Positions 3,314 to 28,822 of a stretch of 64,000 nt of DNA are shown here, one piece after another. Within the stretch, counting starts at the first letter, position 1; the number at the start of each line of letters is the position of its first letter. The DNA is from Escherichia phage U1G: the sequence record NC_070872.1; one strand, given 5' to 3'. The position numbers and the translations under genes are program-made. The notes beneath the pieces were generated by a model. It worked only from the letters and a program-made list of their open reading frames with translations. It was not told the origin of the DNA and searched no databases.

Positions 3314-3622
3314 TTGAATGAAATAGTATGTATACTTCCTCACCAAGCTAAAGTAGCTGACAGGAATATACGGGTACATTTACCATTCCCATTAAGTAAT
3401 CCATTTGCTCGTAATGAAAGAACCACGGTAGAAGATATAGAGGTAGCTTATGAGGCTTACCTTCGTAATCGTCTTATTAGTGGTGACAAGTTAATTACAG
3501 CAGAGATGGAAAGGATTGCATCCTTTGTAACAGATAGTACAGGTAAACCCGTTGGTTTAATTGGTACTGAATCTGATGTTAACGTTATTCGTAAAATACT
3601 AATGGAGGCATTAAGCCAATGA
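3314..3622 (+). CDS. hypothetical protein (TTG start)
   Basis: ORF; AGGAG 8 nt upstream of TTG. Confidence 0.5.
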   Translation: MNEIVCILPHQAKVADRNIRVHLPFPLSNPFARNERTTVEDIEVAYEAYLRNRLISGDKLITAEMERIASFVTDSTGKPVGLIGTESDVNVIRKILMEALSQ

Positions 3623-3840
3623 TGTACACTAGCGATTATGGTATATGCCCAGTCTGTAAGAAAGGACGTGGAGTTGCCAATCATAAACGTTGTAGTCGTA
3701 TATTGCAGAAGCAACGGAACCAGGAAGAATGGGATAAGTTGTTAAATAATCAGCACAAGGAAGAGAATCAACAGATGGCTGTTAAGGCATCTACTCAGCG
3801 TATTCGTCGTATTAACTATATACAAGGATACCAAAAGTGA
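3619..3840 (+). CDS. hypothetical protein, Cys-rich N-terminus
   Basis: ORF; 4-nt overlap with upstream gene. Confidence 0.5.
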   Translation: MMYTSDYGICPVCKKGRGVANHKRCSRILQKQRNQEEWDKLLNNQHKEENQQMAVKASTQRIRRINYIQGYQK

Positions 3841-4094
3841 TTATTACATTTCCCGTAACTAAATCATTTAACTATATGGGACAAACTATTGAAGTCCCAT
3901 TATGGGTTAAATATGTAGCCTTATTACCTCGTCCTCAGAAGAGTAAGAATGCATCACTAATTGGATTTAGTAGAAAGCCTAAGCTAACTGAAAACTGTAT
4001 TTGGAAGTCTAGTGGCAGACAAGAGGAAATTGGTTTTTGTGACTATGTACCTCAACTAAATACAGTATATCTAACCCTGGAGAAAGTAGAGTGA
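3837..4094 (+). CDS. hypothetical protein
   Basis: ORF; 4-nt overlap coupling. Confidence 0.5.
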   Translation: MIITFPVTKSFNYMGQTIEVPLWVKYVALLPRPQKSKNASLIGFSRKPKLTENCIWKSSGRQEEIGFCDYVPQLNTVYLTLEKVE

Positions 4095-4411
4095 ATAACA
4101 TTGTAGTAGTACATGATTCTACATTTACTGATGTAGATAAGATGATGCGTAATATTGATTATGTATCTCAAACAAGCCAAGCATTCAATGAAGAGTTTAC
4201 TCTGTACTGCAATGCTGAATCTCCACTGGTTCCTATCCTTAAGAAGGCAGGTTTACCATTCTCTACAGAGGACTTCCCGGAAGAACCAGACTATGTAATC
4301 TCATTTATTTATGACTTACATGATGGTTCTGAAACTAGTGAATTAGCTATGAACCAGTGGCGTAGTAAACGTCCTGTGTTCCCTTTTCAGGTACTTAAAC
4401 CAAAGGATTAA
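4091..4411 (+). CDS. hypothetical protein
   Basis: ORF; 4-nt overlap coupling. Confidence 0.5.
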   Translation: MNNIVVVHDSTFTDVDKMMRNIDYVSQTSQAFNEEFTLYCNAESPLVPILKKAGLPFSTEDFPEEPDYVISFIYDLHDGSETSELAMNQWRSKRPVFPFQVLKPKD

Positions 4412-22279: not shown

Positions 22280-22777
22280 ATGAACTGGAACCAAATATTC
22301 GATTTCGTAGATGGCAAGCTCTACTGGAAAAACTGTACACAGCCTTTTAGAAATGGCACAGAAGCTGGTTGCTTATCTGAGGATGGTTATCTAAGTGTAA
22401 GGCACAATAGAGTACTATATCTAAACCATCACATAATTTTCGAGATGCATAAAGGTAAGATTCCCCCAGGTATGGTGATTGACCATGATGACAGGAACAA
22501 ACTTAATAATTACCCAAGCAATTTAATAGCCAAAACCCAACAAGATAACACCAAAAACCAAACCATGCGTAAAAGCAATATGGCAGGTTGCACAGGTGTT
22601 CGCTTTAGAAGTGAAAGGGGTAAATGGCAAGCCCGAATTACTGTAGATGGTAAGCAAAAACACCTAGGTTATTTTACAACCAAAGAAGATGCTATATCAG
22701 CAAGAGAGGAAGCCAACATAAAGTATGGTTTCCATAAAAACCATGGAAAACCTACTGGAGGCTCCTTTGTTCGCTAA
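22280..22777 (+). CDS. HNH homing endonuclease with AP2-like domain
   Basis: GKLYWK...MVIDHDDRNKLNN, then GVRFRSERGKWQARITVDGKQKHLGYFTTKEDA; paralog of the 2571 ORF. Confidence 0.8.
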   Translation: MNWNQIFDFVDGKLYWKNCTQPFRNGTEAGCLSEDGYLSVRHNRVLYLNHHIIFEMHKGKIPPGMVIDHDDRNKLNNYPSNLIAKTQQDNTKNQTMRKSNMAGCTGVRFRSERGKWQARITVDGKQKHLGYFTTKEDAISAREEANIKYGFHKNHGKPTGGSFVR

Positions 22778-24077
22778 AAGTAATAAAAAACCCCTCAACT
22801 CTGGGCAAGAATTAGTAGCAAAAGCATTTTTTGATTTCTTATTAGACCCTAATTCAACTGAGTTTGGAATTTCAGGACCTGGGGGAACTGGTAAGACATT
22901 CCTGATGTCGCACCTCATTGATGACACTATGCCTGCATACATGGAAACTTGTTCTTTGATGGGAACCAAGCCCCTGTATAACGAAGTTGTCATGACTGCA
23001 ACCACGAACAAAGCTGCTGAAGTACTGGCTCAAGCTACAGGACGTCCAACATCTACCTATCACTCCTTCCAGGGTCTGATTGTTAAGAATGACTTTAAGA
23101 CTGGTGAGGCTAACGTAGTGCCATCTAAATCATTCAACATTAAGAAGAACAAGATTATCTTCGTAGACGAAGCATCCATGATTGATCGTCAGTTACTTAA
23201 GTATGCTCGTGAAGGTACTCACCAGTGCAAACTGGTATTTGTAGGCGATGCTTCTCAGCTACTGCCTGTTAAAGAGAATAAGTCTCCGGTATATGCAGGT
23301 AATATCCCAACACACTATCTGACTGAACAGATGCGTACTGATGCACCGGAACTTAAAGCATTGCACCAGCAATTGCGTGATACGGTGGAAGGTAAGACAG
23401 GCTTCCTGCCAATTAAATGTATCCCTGGTATCATTGACTGGGTACAGGAGGAAGAGATGGAGAAATTGGTTCTCAGTCACTTCACTCAACCTACCAACAG
23501 CCGTATTGTTGCTTACACAAATGACCAGGTTATTAATTACAATAACTACATTCGTGAAGCTAACGGTTATGTAGGTGAGTACTCCATCGGCGAGCAGCTG
23601 GTATCTAACTCTGCTGTTCGCCTGGGTGTGGAAGACCGTTTGTCTATTGAGCAGGACGTAAAACTCATCGACCAGGATAGCAGTACTCGCATGATTAAAG
23701 TTACAGGTGACCTGGAACTGAAAGTTCGTGATAGTACTCTTGACCTCGGTTATGGTGGCATTGTAAGTGAAGTTCCAGTTCCTACTGACCCAGACTACTT
23801 TAACCGTTTGGTTAAGTGGTTAGGTAAAGAAAAGAACTGGGAACCTTACTTCCGTCTTAAAGAAACCATTCCAGACCTACGTGCTACTCATGCATGTACT
23901 GTCCATAAATCTCAAGGCTCTACTTACGACACAATCTTCATTGACGCAAATGACCTCTCAAGCTGTCGCCAACCAGATATGGTTGCCCGTCTGCTTTACG
24001 TCGCTGTGTCTCGTGCTCGTAAGCGTGTAGTGTTCTATGGCAATCTTGCCAGTAAGTACGGTGGCCTAACTTTCTAA
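22725..24077 (+). CDS. SF1 DNA helicase (Dda/RecD-like)
   Basis: Walker A GPGGTGKT, IFVDEASM, VFVGDASQLLPV, VHKSQGSTYDTIFID; 5' end overlaps the upstream HNH ORF, start uncertain (22725 or 22743). Confidence 0.7.
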   Translation: MVSIKTMENLLEAPLFAKSNKKPLNSGQELVAKAFFDFLLDPNSTEFGISGPGGTGKTFLMSHLIDDTMPAYMETCSLMGTKPLYNEVVMTATTNKAAEVLAQATGRPTSTYHSFQGLIVKNDFKTGEANVVPSKSFNIKKNKIIFVDEASMIDRQLLKYAREGTHQCKLVFVGDASQLLPVKENKSPVYAGNIPTHYLTEQMRTDAPELKALHQQLRDTVEGKTGFLPIKCIPGIIDWVQEEEMEKLVLSHFTQPTNSRIVAYTNDQVINYNNYIREANGYVGEYSIGEQLVSNSAVRLGVEDRLSIEQDVKLIDQDSSTRMIKVTGDLELKVRDSTLDLGYGGIVSEVPVPTDPDYFNRLVKWLGKEKNWEPYFRLKETIPDLRATHACTVHKSQGSTYDTIFIDANDLSSCRQPDMVARLLYVAVSRARKRVVFYGNLASKYGGLTF

Positions 24078-24087
24078 GGGAGGATAT

Positions 24088-24618
24088 ATGCCTCAGATTG
24101 GTTCAGCGACTATTGGTCAAGTTGCCAATAGCAGCGAGATAGTCAAGCATCTGTTCTTAGCAGAACTGGTTCGTCTTGATGGTGTGTTAAACGGTATCAT
24201 TGATAAGAATGATCGTATCAATGGTGTAGATGTATCAGCTGGATTCCTTTACCAGGGTGAGTTCTATCAGCGTTCTAACGCTACCAGACCTCCAACCTAC
24301 GGTGAGCGATTAACGCTTAATCCAGAACTGTGGCCTGCAATGGACAAGTATCTGAAAGCCTCCAGTCGTTTGATTATGGAAGTACACCTTGTGAACCAGA
24401 CTGTATATCGTCTGGTTCGTGGCTGTATGTCCTATCAGGATGTACGTGATGCTCTGCCTGAGTGTCTGGTAGCACAAGACCAGACGGGTCAGTACAAAGG
24501 TCTGCCTCGTACTCGTGAAGCAGCTTGGACACTTGCTGGTGATGCTATGGCAATCAAGCAGTATGAGAAGATTCTGCCCTCTATTGAGTATTATGCAGCT
24601 TCCCATCTGATTTTCTAA
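24088..24618 (+). CDS. hypothetical protein
   Basis: ORF. Confidence 0.5.
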   Translation: MPQIGSATIGQVANSSEIVKHLFLAELVRLDGVLNGIIDKNDRINGVDVSAGFLYQGEFYQRSNATRPPTYGERLTLNPELWPAMDKYLKASSRLIMEVHLVNQTVYRLVRGCMSYQDVRDALPECLVAQDQTGQYKGLPRTREAAWTLAGDAMAIKQYEKILPSIEYYAASHLIF

Positions 24619-24627
24619 GGTAAAGCT

Positions 24628-26442
24628 ATGCGTTACATCACCTCTCAGGATACTGGTAAGTATCCTATTGCTATCCTCGGTCATCAAATCCGAAGGGAGG
24701 AGATGATTAAAACCTATCTGCTGCCTTATGACCTAAGTATGGAAGACTTCATCTTTATTGAACTTCATTCTGCCCCCGGCAAGAAAACTCCTGCAAGAGA
24801 GATTAAGGAGTTCATACAGCAGGAACTGCAACAAGTACTGGATGATGCAGAGACTCAATACATTATCTGTACCGATTCTGACTACTTCAAAATACTGACT
24901 AAAGAAGCTAAAGCAGAGGCTAACCTCGGCTATGTTTGTGACTCAGTATGGGGTAAGCAGAAGGTTATCTATGCACCTAGCTACAGACAGGTCTTTTATG
25001 ACCCTCCTGTAGTGAAATCCAAGATTGCTCAGGGTATGGATGCATTACTTAACCACATACGTGGGCAGTATGCTGAACCAGGTCAAGGAATCATTGAGTT
25101 TGAAGCCTATCCGGATACTCCCGAGAAGATTAAAGCCTGGCTAGACCAGTTGCTTGAGATGAATAAGCCATTGGCTATAGACATCGAAGCATTCGGTTTA
25201 AAGCACTATAACGCCGGTATAGGGACAATTACATTCTGTTGGAGTAAAACACAAGGCATAGCCTTTAACGTGGACTACGAGCCGATTCCTGGAGCTACTG
25301 AAGCACCATACGGGCGTATCAACCGTAATGATATTGTTCGAAACCTTCTGCGTGAGTTCTTCATTAAGTACACCCAACGGCAGATGTATCACAACATTAG
25401 CTATGATGTGTACATACTTATCTATCAGTTATTCATGGATAATCTGATTGATACAGAGGGACTACTACATGGCATGGACATCATGCTGCGTAATTGGGAC
25501 TGTACTAAGTTAATCACCTATCTGGCTACTAACAGTTGTGCAGGCAATCATCTTAGTCTAAAAGAGCAGGCTCAGGAGTATGCTGGTAACTATGCTCAGG
25601 ATGATATCAAAGACATACGTCTTATTCCTAATGAGCAACTGTTACGCTACAACCTCATTGATGGTTTGTGTACTTGGTACACATACGAGAAGCACTGGGA
25701 TACTCTCATTGCCGATGACCAACTTGATGTTTACAACAGCATCTTTAAACCAGCCTGTGAAGACATTATTCAGATGCAGTTAACCGGTATGCCCATGAAT
25801 ATGGAAACCGTTAACCAAGTAGCTGAAGAAATGGAAACTGACAGGAACCAGGCTCTGAAAACTATTCGTGAGTCTAACCTCATGAAGAACTTTACCCTGA
25901 TGCTTCGTCAGGAATGGGTAGACGATAAGAATGCTAAGCTTAAGAAGAAGCAGGTAACACTAGCTGATTGTGACATTGAGTTTAATCCTAACTCTGGCCC
26001 ACAACTACAGAAGCTGTTATTTGACTATATCGGCTTACCGGTTCTTGGTCTTACTAAGAGCAAGCAACCTGCTACTGACGGTGACACTATTAAAGCACTG
26101 CGTACACATACGCAGAGTGAAGATGTTAAGGAACTGCTCAATGCACTTATCGACTATAAGCTCGTGGATAAGATTATCACTAGCTTTATACCAGCTTTCA
26201 GGAATGCCCAACCGGGACCAGATGGCTGGCACTACCTGTTCGGTAACCTCAATCTGGGAGGCACAGTCTCCGGTAGGTTATCGGCTTCAGAGCCAAATCT
26301 ACAAACAATTCCATCCGGCTCTAAATATGCCAAGAAGATTAAGAAATGCTTCGAAGCTCCACCTAGTTGTTACTTGCCAAACAGGACCAAGCTGGATACA
26401 TTAATCCAGTCCCTGAAAAATACAATTAGTGGTGCCAAATGA
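24628..26442 (+). CDS. family A DNA polymerase, N-terminal fragment (3'-5' exonuclease plus part of polymerase domain)
   Basis: Exo I AIDIEAFGL; GTVSGRLSASEPNLQTIP and KKCFEAPP just before the break. Confidence 0.75.
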   Translation: MRYITSQDTGKYPIAILGHQIRREEMIKTYLLPYDLSMEDFIFIELHSAPGKKTPAREIKEFIQQELQQVLDDAETQYIICTDSDYFKILTKEAKAEANLGYVCDSVWGKQKVIYAPSYRQVFYDPPVVKSKIAQGMDALLNHIRGQYAEPGQGIIEFEAYPDTPEKIKAWLDQLLEMNKPLAIDIEAFGLKHYNAGIGTITFCWSKTQGIAFNVDYEPIPGATEAPYGRINRNDIVRNLLREFFIKYTQRQMYHNISYDVYILIYQLFMDNLIDTEGLLHGMDIMLRNWDCTKLITYLATNSCAGNHLSLKEQAQEYAGNYAQDDIKDIRLIPNEQLLRYNLIDGLCTWYTYEKHWDTLIADDQLDVYNSIFKPACEDIIQMQLTGMPMNMETVNQVAEEMETDRNQALKTIRESNLMKNFTLMLRQEWVDDKNAKLKKKQVTLADCDIEFNPNSGPQLQKLLFDYIGLPVLGLTKSKQPATDGDTIKALRTHTQSEDVKELLNALIDYKLVDKIITSFIPAFRNAQPGPDGWHYLFGNLNLGGTVSGRLSASEPNLQTIPSGSKYAKKIKKCFEAPPSCYLPNRTKLDTLIQSLKNTISGAK

Positions 26443-27095
26443 TAGGAAAGAAATTTAATAGATTGACTGTAGTCAGGTTCAGTCACAAAGACAAATACTA
26501 TGCAAAGCATTGGGAATGCCTTTGTGACTGTGGGAATACTACTATAGTCAACAATCAAAAATTAAAGAGTGGTCATACAAGAAGTTGTGGATGTTTACAC
26601 AAAGAATGCCTACGTAACTATAAAGATGGTCGTTCTAAGGAACTACTATATAAGGTTTACTACGGCATCCTTGACCGCTGCCATAATGAAAAGTGTTCCA
26701 CTTATTACAAATATGGGGCTAAGGGCATAAGTGTTTGCGATGAGTGGAAAAATTCATACGAAACTTTCCGAGATTGGGCATTATCTTCTGGTTATGCAGC
26801 AGGTCTTAGTATCGACAGGATTGATGCCTATAAAGGATATTCTCCAGACAACTGTAGATGGGCAAATAGAAGTACCCAACAAACTAACAAAAGGGTTTGG
26901 AGTACAACTCCTTACGTTAGCTACAGTAAGTCAAAAAATAAATGGGTAGGTAGAATTACCCATTTGGGTAAGAGAATAGAAATCCGGGTAGATAGAGATC
27001 TAGATACTGTTATGAATGCAGTTATTGCTTATGTATTAGCTAATAACTTGGTTGAACAGGAGAAGGTACTTCGTAATGCAGGACTTATTAAATAA
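26439..27095 (+). CDS. free-standing homing endonuclease-like ORF (Zn-ribbon plus AP2-like domain) inserted in the DNA polymerase gene
   Basis: FNRLTVV...WECLCDCGNTTIV...GHTRSCGC pattern, C-terminal NKWVGRITHLGKRIEIRV; ATGA overlap with the polymerase N-fragment stop; different frame from both polymerase parts. Confidence 0.6.
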   Translation: MIGKKFNRLTVVRFSHKDKYYAKHWECLCDCGNTTIVNNQKLKSGHTRSCGCLHKECLRNYKDGRSKELLYKVYYGILDRCHNEKCSTYYKYGAKGISVCDEWKNSYETFRDWALSSGYAAGLSIDRIDAYKGYSPDNCRWANRSTQQTNKRVWSTTPYVSYSKSKNKWVGRITHLGKRIEIRVDRDLDTVMNAVIAYVLANNLVEQEKVLRNAGLIK

Positions 27096-28047
27096 ATTAG
27101 TTAGCATAAAGGATAGAGTAACCCTGGATGACTATGACGAGTTAATACAATTAGCTAGTAAATATGGCATGCAGGAACAAGTATCTGAATGCTTTGACTA
27201 TGAGGGTGGATGGTTGTTTTGTGGGCTAGACTTTGCGTCCTTAGAGGATCGCATATCAGCCCTAACAACCAAAGACCCTAATAAATTGCGTGTGTATACT
27301 GACGGGTTTGACGGTCATTCACTCAGAGCTAAATTTTATTTCGGTGAACAAATGCCGGATATTGATGACTCTGTAGAAAGCATCAACTCTATACAGAAAA
27401 AATATAAAGCCTTACGTAGCGAATCGAAAGCACCTACTTTCTTACTGACCTACGGCGGAACTTATATGGGCTTAATGAAAAACTGTGGCTTCTCGGAAGA
27501 GAAGGCTAAATTAATTGAGTCCAGATACCACGAAATGTATACGGTTAGTGATGCCTGGGTTCAGGCTAAGCTAGACGAAGCTGCTAAGACTGGTTATGTA
27601 ACTGCTGCATTTGGTTTGAGAGTGCGTACTCCTTTACTGGCTCAGGTTTTACGTGGGACATGTAAGACCCCATATGAAGCAGAAGCTGAAGGCAGGACTG
27701 CTGGTAATGCATTAGGTCAAAGCTGGTGTCTACTGAATAATCGTGCTGGCTCAGAGTTTATGCGTAAAGTCAGAACCAGTGAGTTCAGATTAGATATACG
27801 TCCTTGTATTCACATTCATGATGCCCAATACTTCATGATTCGTGACAACATGGATACCTTGCAGTACACGAACAAGCACTTGGTTGAAGCCGTTAACTGG
27901 CAAGACCATCCTGATATTGCTCATCCAGAAGTTGGTTTGGGTGGGGAACTATCCTTGTTTTACCCAACGTGGGCTAACGAGATTGAAATTCCAAATCACG
28001 CTACCCCAGATGAAGTTCATCAAATAATTCAAAAGGCATTCGCATGA
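27076..28047 (+). CDS. family A DNA polymerase, C-terminal fragment (palm/fingers)
   Basis: Motif A LDFASLEDRISAL, motif B KAPTFLLTYGGTYMG, motif C IHIHDAQYF; AGGAGAAGG upstream of ATG 27076 (longest ORF starts TTG 27052). Confidence 0.7.
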   Translation: MQDLLNKLVSIKDRVTLDDYDELIQLASKYGMQEQVSECFDYEGGWLFCGLDFASLEDRISALTTKDPNKLRVYTDGFDGHSLRAKFYFGEQMPDIDDSVESINSIQKKYKALRSESKAPTFLLTYGGTYMGLMKNCGFSEEKAKLIESRYHEMYTVSDAWVQAKLDEAAKTGYVTAAFGLRVRTPLLAQVLRGTCKTPYEAEAEGRTAGNALGQSWCLLNNRAGSEFMRKVRTSEFRLDIRPCIHIHDAQYFMIRDNMDTLQYTNKHLVEAVNWQDHPDIAHPEVGLGGELSLFYPTWANEIEIPNHATPDEVHQIIQKAFA

Positions 28048-28349
28048 CTAAAAGTACGAAAGAAACCGTTGTCAGAAAATATCATTGGATGGTAGCAGCA
28101 CAGGTAATCTTCCAGCTTCCCAAAGCTGATGATGGCTCTCTGCTTACCATGAACACAATGCTGCTCACTGATGAACCTTACGTGACTTATAAAGATTTGG
28201 CTCGTGCCAATCACTCTCTGAAGATTAGTCTGGACCAGCGTTTTGATACCTCGGTTGACTTGAAAGACATCGTTTATTTGTCTCTTAGCAACCTGGGTCT
28301 GATGTCTGAATCAAAGTTCCAGGCAAACATGATTCCCAAGGGGGAATAA
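28044..28349 (+). CDS. hypothetical protein
   Basis: ORF; 4-nt overlap. Confidence 0.5.
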   Translation: MTKSTKETVVRKYHWMVAAQVIFQLPKADDGSLLTMNTMLLTDEPYVTYKDLARANHSLKISLDQRFDTSVDLKDIVYLSLSNLGLMSESKFQANMIPKGE

Positions 28350-28822
28350 TGACTAAGCTCTCCGGTGGATTGAATAACTGGTATGTAGTACCAGTTAAGA
28401 ACCCTCAACGGAAAGAGCAAGAGCCATACCAAGCAGAGTGTGAGGATATTATCCAGGCACTGGGCATGACCTTCGATGAAGGTTGTGCCTTTAAAGCTCT
28501 ATGGCGAAATGCTGCTGCCCGTATGGGTAATGGTAAACCTGGAAATACTCCAGTGTATGATTGTGAGAAGCTTGTTCATTATGCTAATCGACTACTTGCT
28601 AAAGCTTACTTTGATTCTAAGGATAGCGGTGAAGTAGTTAAGTTGGAAGAATCCAATACGGATTGGGTTTACAGTAATGAAAGACCATCCTTCATGCGTA
28701 AGTGGAAAAAGCTTGAGTATGAGTACAAAAACCATTGTACAACCTACACATGCTTTCCAGGGGAACCACAGCTACTATCTATTAACTGGGCAGATATTTA
28801 TCGTTATAGGATTACCTACTAA
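28349..28822 (+). CDS. hypothetical protein
   Basis: ORF. Confidence 0.5.
   Translation: MTKLSGGLNNWYVVPVKNPQRKEQEPYQAECEDIIQALGMTFDEGCAFKALWRNAAARMGNGKPGNTPVYDCEKLVHYANRLLAKAYFDSKDSGEVVKLEESNTDWVYSNERPSFMRKWKKLEYEYKNHCTTYTCFPGEPQLLSINWADIYRYRITY

Follow-up and report, generated by a model that had tools for sequence, protein, structure and literature searches.

The stretch analysed here, 64,000 nucleotides of Escherichia phage U1G (sequence record NC_070872.1; hereafter the window), carries a family A DNA polymerase gene that is split into two cistrons by a cassette built around a free-standing endonuclease gene. Comparison with uninterrupted genes shows an exact insertion that lacks the hallmarks of introns and inteins, is conserved across lineages and occurs in different allele backgrounds. 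We propose, with a probability of roughly 0.55, that this intron-less and intein-less cassette has turned the enzyme into a two-piece polymerase, and that the two peptides it adds at the break (a 25-residue tail on the N-terminal fragment and a 44-residue head on the C-terminal fragment, with the 218-residue endonuclease encoded between them) probably aid docking or activity of the halves. No paper on this polymerase split in N4-like phages was found in the literature searched.

Two halves of a family A polymerase

The stretch was assigned to Gamaleyavirus, a group of G7C/N4-like coliphages in the Schitoviridae, and over positions 24000-28600 it is 98% identical to phage PGN829.1, 93% to phi G17 and 92% to ST4. 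The upstream open reading frame (ORF), or N-fragment, comprises exonuclease, thumb and PNLQTIP regions, runs on to ...KKCFEAPP and ends with the tail; it matches Pfam DNA_pol_A (E-value 3.7e-18) over profile positions 11-150 and the DNA polymerase family phrog_17 (6.9e-117), and is collinear with residues 1-581 of the intact polymerase of phage ECBP1. The downstream ORF, or C-fragment, matches positions 137-340 of the same Pfam profile (1.6e-15) and phrog_2573, a family of C-terminal polymerase fragments (3.2e-75). Both fragments align with Taq and other PolI structures and are collinear with the ECBP1 enzyme. Because the two Pfam matches complement each other within a single domain and close relatives carry the gene intact, the arrangement is not a matter of chance, and by sequence comparison the two ORFs can be identified as the halves of an N4 gp39-like family A DNA polymerase.

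The original prediction, made from the letters of the DNA, had placed Exo I and PNLQTIP in the N-fragment and motifs A, B and C in the C-fragment, and all five were located there (Table 1), the last three within 27226-27834. It had also described an ATGA overlap between the N-fragment stop and the start of the middle ORF, as well as a C-fragment start with its own Shine-Dalgarno sequence inside that ORF, and both are present. The ORF listing puts the C-fragment start at a TTG at 27052, yet the true start is almost certainly the ATG at 27076, judging from its context and conservation: it lies 20 nucleotides inside the 3' end of the endonuclease ORF, it is preceded by the Shine-Dalgarno-like AGGAGAAGG, and it is common to phi G17 and the metagenomic homologues described below (including P0001-P0007), with 26990-27105 nearly unchanged across the four cassette-bearing phages. 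The GenBank records list two coding sequences named "DNA polymerase I" and one "HNH endonuclease", with no more detail on the split, and the PGN829.1 annotation begins the C-fragment downstream of motif A.

An exact insertion beside the active site

In ECBP1, one uninterrupted 860-residue polymerase reads ...KKCFEAPPGWIFCGLDFASLEDRI... across the junction. Alignment to intact N4-like polymerases, proposed with the original prediction as a means of defining the break, confirms that an insertion splits the gene: it is exact, measures 843 nucleotides and separates ...CFEAPP from GW...; the motif A aspartate, which we take to be the equivalent of Taq D610, follows seven residues later. The Taq alignment puts the break in the turn between ...RRAFIAEE and GWLLVALDYS..., which identifies the insertion site, by homology, as a β-hairpin turn; exonuclease and thumb therefore remain in the N-fragment, and the C-fragment has motifs A and C, in the catalytic palm, and motif B, in the fingers.

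The cassette has a GC content of 37.1%, against 43% in the flanking polymerase segments (hereafter exons) and in the whole window, and is flanked by an imperfect direct repeat whose protein-level duplication (..K.CF...) is present in all five independent cassettes (5/5). A search of 50,697 phage records found the cassette only in PGN829.1, ST4 and phi G17; most Gamaleyavirus records that match the locus are without it, an intact polymerase being typical. Scanning the + strand of the cassette for sigma-70 promoters and terminators gave nothing above background, N4-type promoters being outside the coverage of the scan.

Table 1. Features of the split polymerase locus (positions in the window).
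Feature	Position	Strand	Details
Family A DNA polymerase N-fragment gene	24628-26442	+	604 aa, 69.1 kDa; ORF listing, Pfam, PHROG
Exo I, AIDIEAFGL (N-fragment)	25174-25200	+	3'-5' exonuclease motif
PNLQTIP region (N-fragment)	26293-26313	+	motif located in sequence
Imperfect direct repeat, left copy, AATGCTTCGAAGCTCCACCT	26345-26364	+	flanks cassette
Inserted cassette, apparently mobile	26365-27207	+	843 nt; boundaries by blastn against the intact ECBP1 gene
N-fragment C-terminal tail, SCYLPNRTKLDTLIQSLKNTISGAK	26365-26439	+	25 aa, cassette-encoded; predicted amphipathic helix
ATGA overlap, N-fragment stop and endonuclease ATG	26439-26442	+	read from sequence
Middle ORF, putative endonuclease gene	26439-27095	+	218 aa, 25.3 kDa, pI 9.5; frame differs from polymerase
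Cys-rich N-terminal zinc ribbon	26517-26594	+	β-ribbon; C27, C29, C31, C50, C52 invariant
Divergent HNH-like ββα motif, SIDRID...NCRW...QQTNK	26808-26891	+	predicted at residues 124-149
C-terminal AP2-like DNA-binding domain	from 26913	+	predicted three-stranded sheet and helix, residues 159-201
Shine-Dalgarno-like AGGAGAAGG	27058-27066	+	ends 9 nt 5' of C-fragment ATG; within endonuclease ORF 3' end
Family A DNA polymerase C-fragment gene	27076-28047	+	323 aa, 36.7 kDa; ORF listing, Pfam, PHROG, Taq alignment
C-fragment N-terminal head, MQDLLNKLVSIKDRVTLDDYDELIQLASKYGMQEQVSECFDYEG	27076-27207	+	44 aa, cassette-encoded; 2-3 predicted helices
Imperfect direct repeat, right copy, AATGCTTTGACTATGAGGGT	27188-27207	+	9/10 identical over first 10 nt
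Motif A, LDFASLEDRI (C-fragment)	27226-27255	+	motif located in sequence
Motif B, TFLLTYGGTYMG (C-fragment)	27436-27471	+	motif located in sequence
Motif C, IHIHDAQYF (C-fragment)	27808-27834	+	motif located in sequence
aa, amino acids; nt, nucleotides; pI, isoelectric point.

Neither splicing nor recoding accounts for the break

Were the 843 nucleotides a degenerate or unusual self-splicing intron with an endonuclease ORF, a single full-length polymerase would be produced. Several observations lend themselves to this explanation: in phage PhAPEC5, a member of the same genus, a genuine group I intron, annotated as such and carrying an HNH ORF, interrupts the polymerase gene 21 codons upstream; one has been reported in Pollock too (PMC4319500); the length of the window insertion is a multiple of three and the fragments share a frame; and the 5' exon ends in T. 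The sequence itself speaks against it. A search with the Rfam group I model RF00028, using permissive filters, gave no match in 26200-27400 at E ≤ 10, and a scan of the whole window gave none at the gathering threshold, which agrees with the original prediction that no intron core is visible and supplies the covariance search suggested with it. The same search detected the PhAPEC5 intron in the same gene (38 bits, E-value 6.7e-7, with a second partial match). That intron follows a T and ends in G, obeying the T(-1)/G(omega) rule (U in the RNA), with which none of the five cassettes complies (0/5): in the window, the register with T at -1 ends in T and the alternative register gives C at -1, so that neither satisfies both splice-site rules, and the four other cassettes have G, G, A and A at -1 and C, G, T and T as their last bases. 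Only 74 nucleotides (5') and 112 nucleotides (3') of the cassette lie outside the endonuclease ORF, and these flanks evolve as codons and are kept as peptides where the polymerases are just 55-67% identical. Cassette lengths (843, 843, 686, 699 and 883 nucleotides) are not all multiples of three. With no core found by a search that detected the control, and with the splice-site rule broken, a group I intron was rejected, and we consider any intron at this site very improbable.

The polymerase frame contains 13 stop codons across the cassette. Because of these stops, and because cassettes elsewhere measure 686, 699 and 883 nucleotides, so that length is not maintained as a multiple of three, we likewise rejected readthrough, frameshifting and bypass.

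A further alternative is a split intein made up of tail and head, through which the polymerase would be ligated by protein trans-splicing. The gene order is exactly that of the fractured genes in which such inteins were described (PMC2677866), and the window tail starts with Ser-Cys. The peptides nevertheless lack what the reaction needs: together they amount to 69 residues, which we judge too short; the tail opens with S, A, A, A or G in the five cassettes, leaving no conserved nucleophile; the head ends in YEG, YEE, YDA or QDP and never in (H)N; and the +1 residue after the head is an invariant Gly rather than Cys, Ser or Thr. No Pfam intein or Hint match occurs among the encoded proteins. 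The split intein was rejected on these grounds and its probability is close to nil. As the added peptides are too short and without intein nucleophiles or a terminal Asn, any reunion of the halves must be non-covalent.

A divergent putative endonuclease in the middle

In accordance with the Zn-ribbon/AP2-like endonuclease that had been predicted in a frame other than that of the polymerase, the middle ORF matches the HNH endonuclease family phrog_374 (2.9e-63), and its AlphaFold2 (AF2) model, built with 46 relatives, has a predicted local distance difference test score (pLDDT) of 91.4 and contains both a zinc ribbon and an AP2-like domain, with an HNH-like motif located between the two. AP2 domains are the top domain matches in Foldseek (7et5, probability 0.98), every E-value being sub-threshold. 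There is also a weak sequence match to the HNH restriction enzyme PacI (E-value 0.13). The ORF itself gave no Pfam match of any kind, HNH included, whereas some members of its family match Pfam AP2 (2.9e-8), HNH_2, HNH_3, AHH and NUMOD1. In its motif, IDRID...NCRW...Q..N, an Arg occupies the usual His position, and R127, N138 and N150 are invariant in the 46 relatives. Relatives occur in 770 phage records, often as several copies per genome, and a metagenomic endonuclease cluster has 110 members. From sequence and model, we interpret the middle ORF as a homing endonuclease of the free-standing kind, in which an AP2-like domain accompanies a divergent HNH-like motif; with Arg in place of the catalytic His and no Pfam HNH match, its activity is uncertain.

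The same unit in divergent N4-like phages

A search with the C-fragment retrieved many proteins of similar size on contigs of about 70 kb, in a cluster of 131 members. Their N termini carry heads homologous to that of the window, of the form MQ(D/E)LL..L...L ... (L/V)K.CF.Y(E/D).GW, on polymerases 55-67% identical to the window's. Five metagenomic loci, each a single contig (L007, L008, L009, L010 and L012), have the tail-endonuclease-head order at the identical junction. Their N-fragments end in ..CF.AP. followed by a tail of 18-25 residues with a shared amphipathic pattern, the C-fragment starts fall within the 3' end of the endonuclease gene, and the repeat of the N-fragment strand that closes the head (..IK.CF..) is seen in every cassette. 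The endonucleases belong to the same family, at 45-47% identity, save in L008, where the copy is absent or decayed: its first 57 residues are lost and an in-frame TAG replaces the Trp of NCRW. Tail, head and both polymerase fragments of L008 are intact despite this, a case which shows, at the level of gene structure, that the split arrangement outlasts decay of the endonuclease gene. As the unit recurs in divergent lineages and survives the decay of its endonuclease, it is better described as a portable cassette than as a one-off transposition.

Two of these loci have further pieces. In L007, an HNH_3 ORF (3467-4363) sits between PNL and Q, at the PhAPEC5 intron site, in addition to the tail-endonuclease-head cassette, leaving a middle polymerase piece of about 50 codons (NLPAGAEGE...CFQAPP plus tail); this insertion has no Rfam intron match at E ≤ 0.1, and L007 may hold either a degenerate intron or a three-piece polymerase. 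In the more distant L010 (1236-4987), the break-up of the polymerase seems to go beyond two pieces, with segments of 534, 45 and 110 residues followed by the endonuclease and a 328-residue C-fragment. Downstream of the split polymerase of L009 (5920-6626), proteins match Pfam Sequestin and Acb2_Tad1_hairpin, which we take to be families of anti-defence signal sponges.

Selection on both halves and probable mobility of the cassette

The window and phi G17, both cassette-bearing, were compared for the ratio of non-synonymous to synonymous substitution rates (dN/dS). The ratio is 0.038 in the N exon, 0.023 in the C exon, 0.067 in the endonuclease (53 of 69 substitutions at codon position 3) and 0.073 in the head outside the overlap (five synonymous and two non-synonymous changes; 6/7 head substitutions at codon position 3). 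Synonymous divergence (dS) is at least as large in the cassette (0.30-0.56) as in the exons (0.30-0.34), so that, given the low exon ratios, both halves have probably been constrained while split. None of the frames is interrupted in any of the four genomes that carry the cassette. These comparisons show that the polymerase halves, the endonuclease and, of the added peptides, at least the head evolve as proteins.

This bears on the possibility that the polymerase is dead, its fragments being decaying pseudogenes or a sequencing artefact, and that another enzyme replicates the genome. Nothing beyond the bare interruption speaks for such a state, unless one counts automated annotations that truncate the C-fragment, as in PGN829.1. 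Ratios of 0.02-0.04 in both halves between two cassette-bearing phages, three intact frames in four phage genomes and many metagenomic contigs, and the isolation of cassette-bearing phages as lytic plaque formers in three countries make it highly unlikely; the identical structure in independent assemblies excludes a sequencing artefact.

In the 3' half of the cassette, ST4 is 98.7% identical to the window. In the downstream exon (27340-27599), its identity to the window drops to 77%, whereas to PhAPEC5, a phage without this cassette, it is 97%. As ST4 shares the cassette but not the downstream exon, one cassette is found in two polymerase allele backgrounds, and this, together with its patchy distribution among related genomes, supports the view that it is mobile. 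The exons flanking the insertion site (26140-26364 and 27208-27600) are unusually divergent among Gamaleyaviruses, with 82-87% identity near the site, two allele classes of 70-77% identity downstream of it and about 95% at greater distances. Escape from cleavage may lie behind this pattern, as may co-conversion or recombination at the boundaries of nuclease genes. PGN829.1 (L001) matches 24600-28100 at 100% over long stretches, including the entire cassette, and at 92-97% in 25560-25800, in 25920-26040 and beyond 27600, a mosaic that makes the window a recombinant relative of PGN829.1 rather than the same phage.

The tail and head peptides

Homologues of the window tail in L012, L008, L009 and L010 share the pattern L..LIQ.LK....GA, and the L012 tail matches that of the window at 11 of 25 residues. 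An AF2 model of the fused N- and C-fragments predicts a tail helix at residues 207-220 and further helices at 224-235, 242-254 and 258-262 (pLDDT 62-82 throughout). The final 10 or so residues of the head duplicate the ...IKKCFEAPP strand that closes the N-fragment (..IK.CF..), and the head aligns with ...IRRAFIAEEGW of Taq. It is kept in the homologues P0014, P0016, P0018, P0044, P0074 and P0089.

A profile of eight heads run against 1.84 billion representatives gave five matches at E ≤ 0.001, two of them similar short N-terminal fragments; this search detected no head relatives outside these C-fragments, and an independent domain family was rejected on the strength of the five matches. A BLAST comparison of the head with the KP8 polymerase (shared SKY and CF) suggests that it may have arisen long ago by duplication of the 40 residues that precede the break, a similarity that is not significant beyond the last 10 or so residues. 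Searching by tblastn with the head plus motif A was non-discriminating, since uninterrupted polymerases also give low-identity alignments that extend through the head, and a search with the C-terminal region of the N-fragment returned mostly short partial proteins and no additional tails.

A proposed route from insertion to reassembly

We propose the following sequence of events. The cassette would have entered the phage's sole replicative family A DNA polymerase gene and would provide the upstream half with a 25-codon tail and a stop codon. The ATGA overlap would couple translation of the endonuclease to that of the N-fragment, and the 3' end of the endonuclease gene would supply the ribosome-binding site, ATG and 44-codon head for the downstream half, giving a single transcript with three translationally linked cistrons. 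A 69-kDa exonuclease/thumb fragment and a 37-kDa palm/fingers fragment would thus be made separately and reassemble non-covalently into a working polymerase, with the helical tail, the head and the duplicated ..K.CF.. strand probably helping docking or activity. The endonuclease would target the uninterrupted ...CFEAPPGW... coding sequence (in ECBP1 and G7C, the region AAATGCTTCGAAGCTCCACCTGGATGGATTTTTTGTGG), and would presumably cut cassette-free alleles at co-infection, whereupon repair would copy in the whole cassette. That the halves assemble we infer from purifying selection, from the propagation of the isolates and from retention of the split after endonuclease decay. The analysis supports the original reading of an insertion that would have made a two-subunit enzyme of the polymerase.

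The main rival to this scheme accepts the same split by the same cassette and regards both peptides as passive by-products, the fragments joining through their native interface alone. It can draw on the tail substitutions in close relatives, which are not skewed towards synonymous change; on the overlap of the tail 3' end and the head 5' end with the endonuclease gene, which explains some of the conservation; and on the tails and heads of L009 and L010, diverged almost past recognition. Against it stand the amphipathic pattern of the tail, whose 11/25 identity to L012 equals the level of the endonuclease, the low dN/dS of the head outside the overlap, the retention of both peptides in L008 alongside a dead endonuclease, the duplicated ..K.CF.Y(E/D).GW strand in every cassette, and the precedent of phage Aeh1, in which such tails are essential for activity (PMC3045599). 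We regard this rival as less likely than our own reading, though it is the strongest of the alternatives.

Other points weigh against our preferred reading of a cassette whose peptides assist a two-piece polymerase. Model confidence for tail and head reaches only pLDDT 62-82. Between the window and phi G17, the tail has three non-synonymous and no synonymous changes, and thus no clear synonymous excess, although a peptide so short and so conserved is not informative at this distance; its conservation may also be due in part to the translation signals of the endonuclease. The tails and heads of L009 and L010 are highly divergent. The Arg at the canonical catalytic His position and the lack of a Pfam HNH match for the ORF itself make the activity of the endonuclease uncertain, and the Rfam group I model has incomplete sensitivity; it also gave a null result for the HNH_3 insertion that L007 has at the PhAPEC5 intron site. 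On conservation and the Aeh1 precedent, we place the choice between an adaptor role and the passive alternative at roughly even odds. The fuller proposal, in which tail and head are a portable, co-evolving adaptor pair and the element neutralises its own insertion through non-covalent reassembly, is more tentative still and in our estimate falls slightly short of an even chance.

Other insertions in and around the polymerase gene

The PhAPEC5 group I intron, with its HNH ORF (2802-3505 in L003), lies between PNL and Q, equivalent to about 26301 in the window, and its 38 bits are under the Rfam gathering score of 50. A third insertion type among Gamaleyavirus polymerases is found in SP5M (L004, 2940-3691) and in PD205, between ...KVY and TDGYDGH, equivalent to about 27300 in the window. 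Here an I-HmuI-like HNH ORF overlaps both fragments, with a 45-residue tail and a 29-residue head, and the insertion has no Rfam intron match; many metagenomic C-fragments of 276-283 residues suggest that this intron-less split is widespread too.

The replication module of the window is crowded with homing-endonuclease genes. On the + strand, a free-standing endonuclease ORF at 22280-22777 (Pfam HNH_3, 3.3e-15, with a weak AP2 match) overlaps the start of a Dda-like helicase gene (22725), and another at 29796-30233 (HNH_3, 8.6e-12) lies between exonuclease and primase genes with an ATGA overlap. Both are of a family different from the cassette endonuclease.

Comparison with known systems

Friedrich et al. 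reportedly described the split nrdA/mobE gene of Aeromonas phage Aeh1 in 2007. In that phage, nrdA is divided by the free-standing mobE, and activity requires the tails that the insertion has supplied (Crona et al. 2010, PMC3045599). Aeh1 is the closest known system, closer than the split gp43 polymerases, and the window locus is best classed with it as a family A polymerase of the "genes-in-pieces" type. As in the window, a free-standing endonuclease gene lies inside an essential replication-related gene, near the active site and between adjacent β-strands; neither RNA nor protein splicing operates; the endonuclease gene overlaps the downstream fragment; and the fragments bear insertion-derived C- and N-terminal tails. 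The host enzyme there is a ribonucleotide reductase subunit and the endonuclease belongs to the Mob family, whereas here the host is a monomeric family A DNA polymerase and the endonuclease is of a zinc-ribbon/HNH-like/AP2 family. The Aeh1 split is a single case; here the unit recurs in divergent lineages and survives endonuclease decay.

The precedent named in the original prediction, gp43 of T4-related phages, is a real one. Aeromonas phages 25 and 44RR are reported to encode the PolB-type gp43 as 43A and 43B, whose products co-purify and are active (Petrov et al. 2010, via PMC2988022). As described there, it too is a phage replicative polymerase in two cistrons with a free-standing endonuclease gene, but of family B with another break point, and an untranslated intercistronic element may have caused that split before seg arrived, whereas here the endonuclease cassette itself gives both new termini.

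Fractured genes, in which split inteins flank a free-standing endonuclease gene (Dassa et al. 2009, PMC2677866), share the order of host N-part plus peptide, endonuclease ORF, and peptide plus host C-part. They differ in the peptides themselves, which in the window are too short and have neither intein nucleophiles nor a terminal Asn.

Group I introns with HNH ORFs are also present in the family A polymerase genes of the T7-like phages phiI and W31 and of SPO1. The PhAPEC5-type introns resemble the cassette in occupying the same gene and conserved region, in carrying an HNH-type ORF and in being patchy among close relatives. They have a ribozyme core detectable by Rfam and obey U(-1)/G(omega), whereas the window insertion does neither and has conserved translated flanks.

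The series of natural variants makes the locus useful in its own right. E. coli phages that can be grown in culture are available with the cassette (PGN829.1, phi G17 and ST4) and without it (ECBP1 and G7C, among others), and a related phage has a true intron (PhAPEC5), so that tolerance of a break seven residues from a catalytic aspartate can be tested directly, and the break site offers a point, already validated in nature, at which to split family A polymerases. The truncation and mislabelling of C-fragments by automated annotation affect polymerase-based phylogenies of the Schitoviridae.

Crona et al. suggested, from a single phage, that tails derived from mobile elements may generally neutralise the fragmentation of essential genes (PMC3045599). 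The window and its relatives would present the same solution in another enzyme and another endonuclease family, with comparative evidence of a kind that the single Aeh1 case could not give. If the adaptor reading is true, the host would depend on the adaptors, so that the split would survive loss of the endonuclease, as in L008, and the N4-like polymerase, which can also be split without an intron at a second, SP5M-type site, would form a natural study series. The split would then exemplify a third strategy beside the RNA splicing of introns and the protein splicing of inteins. What sets it apart from these precedents is a portable tail-endonuclease-head cassette that appears to outlive its own endonuclease.

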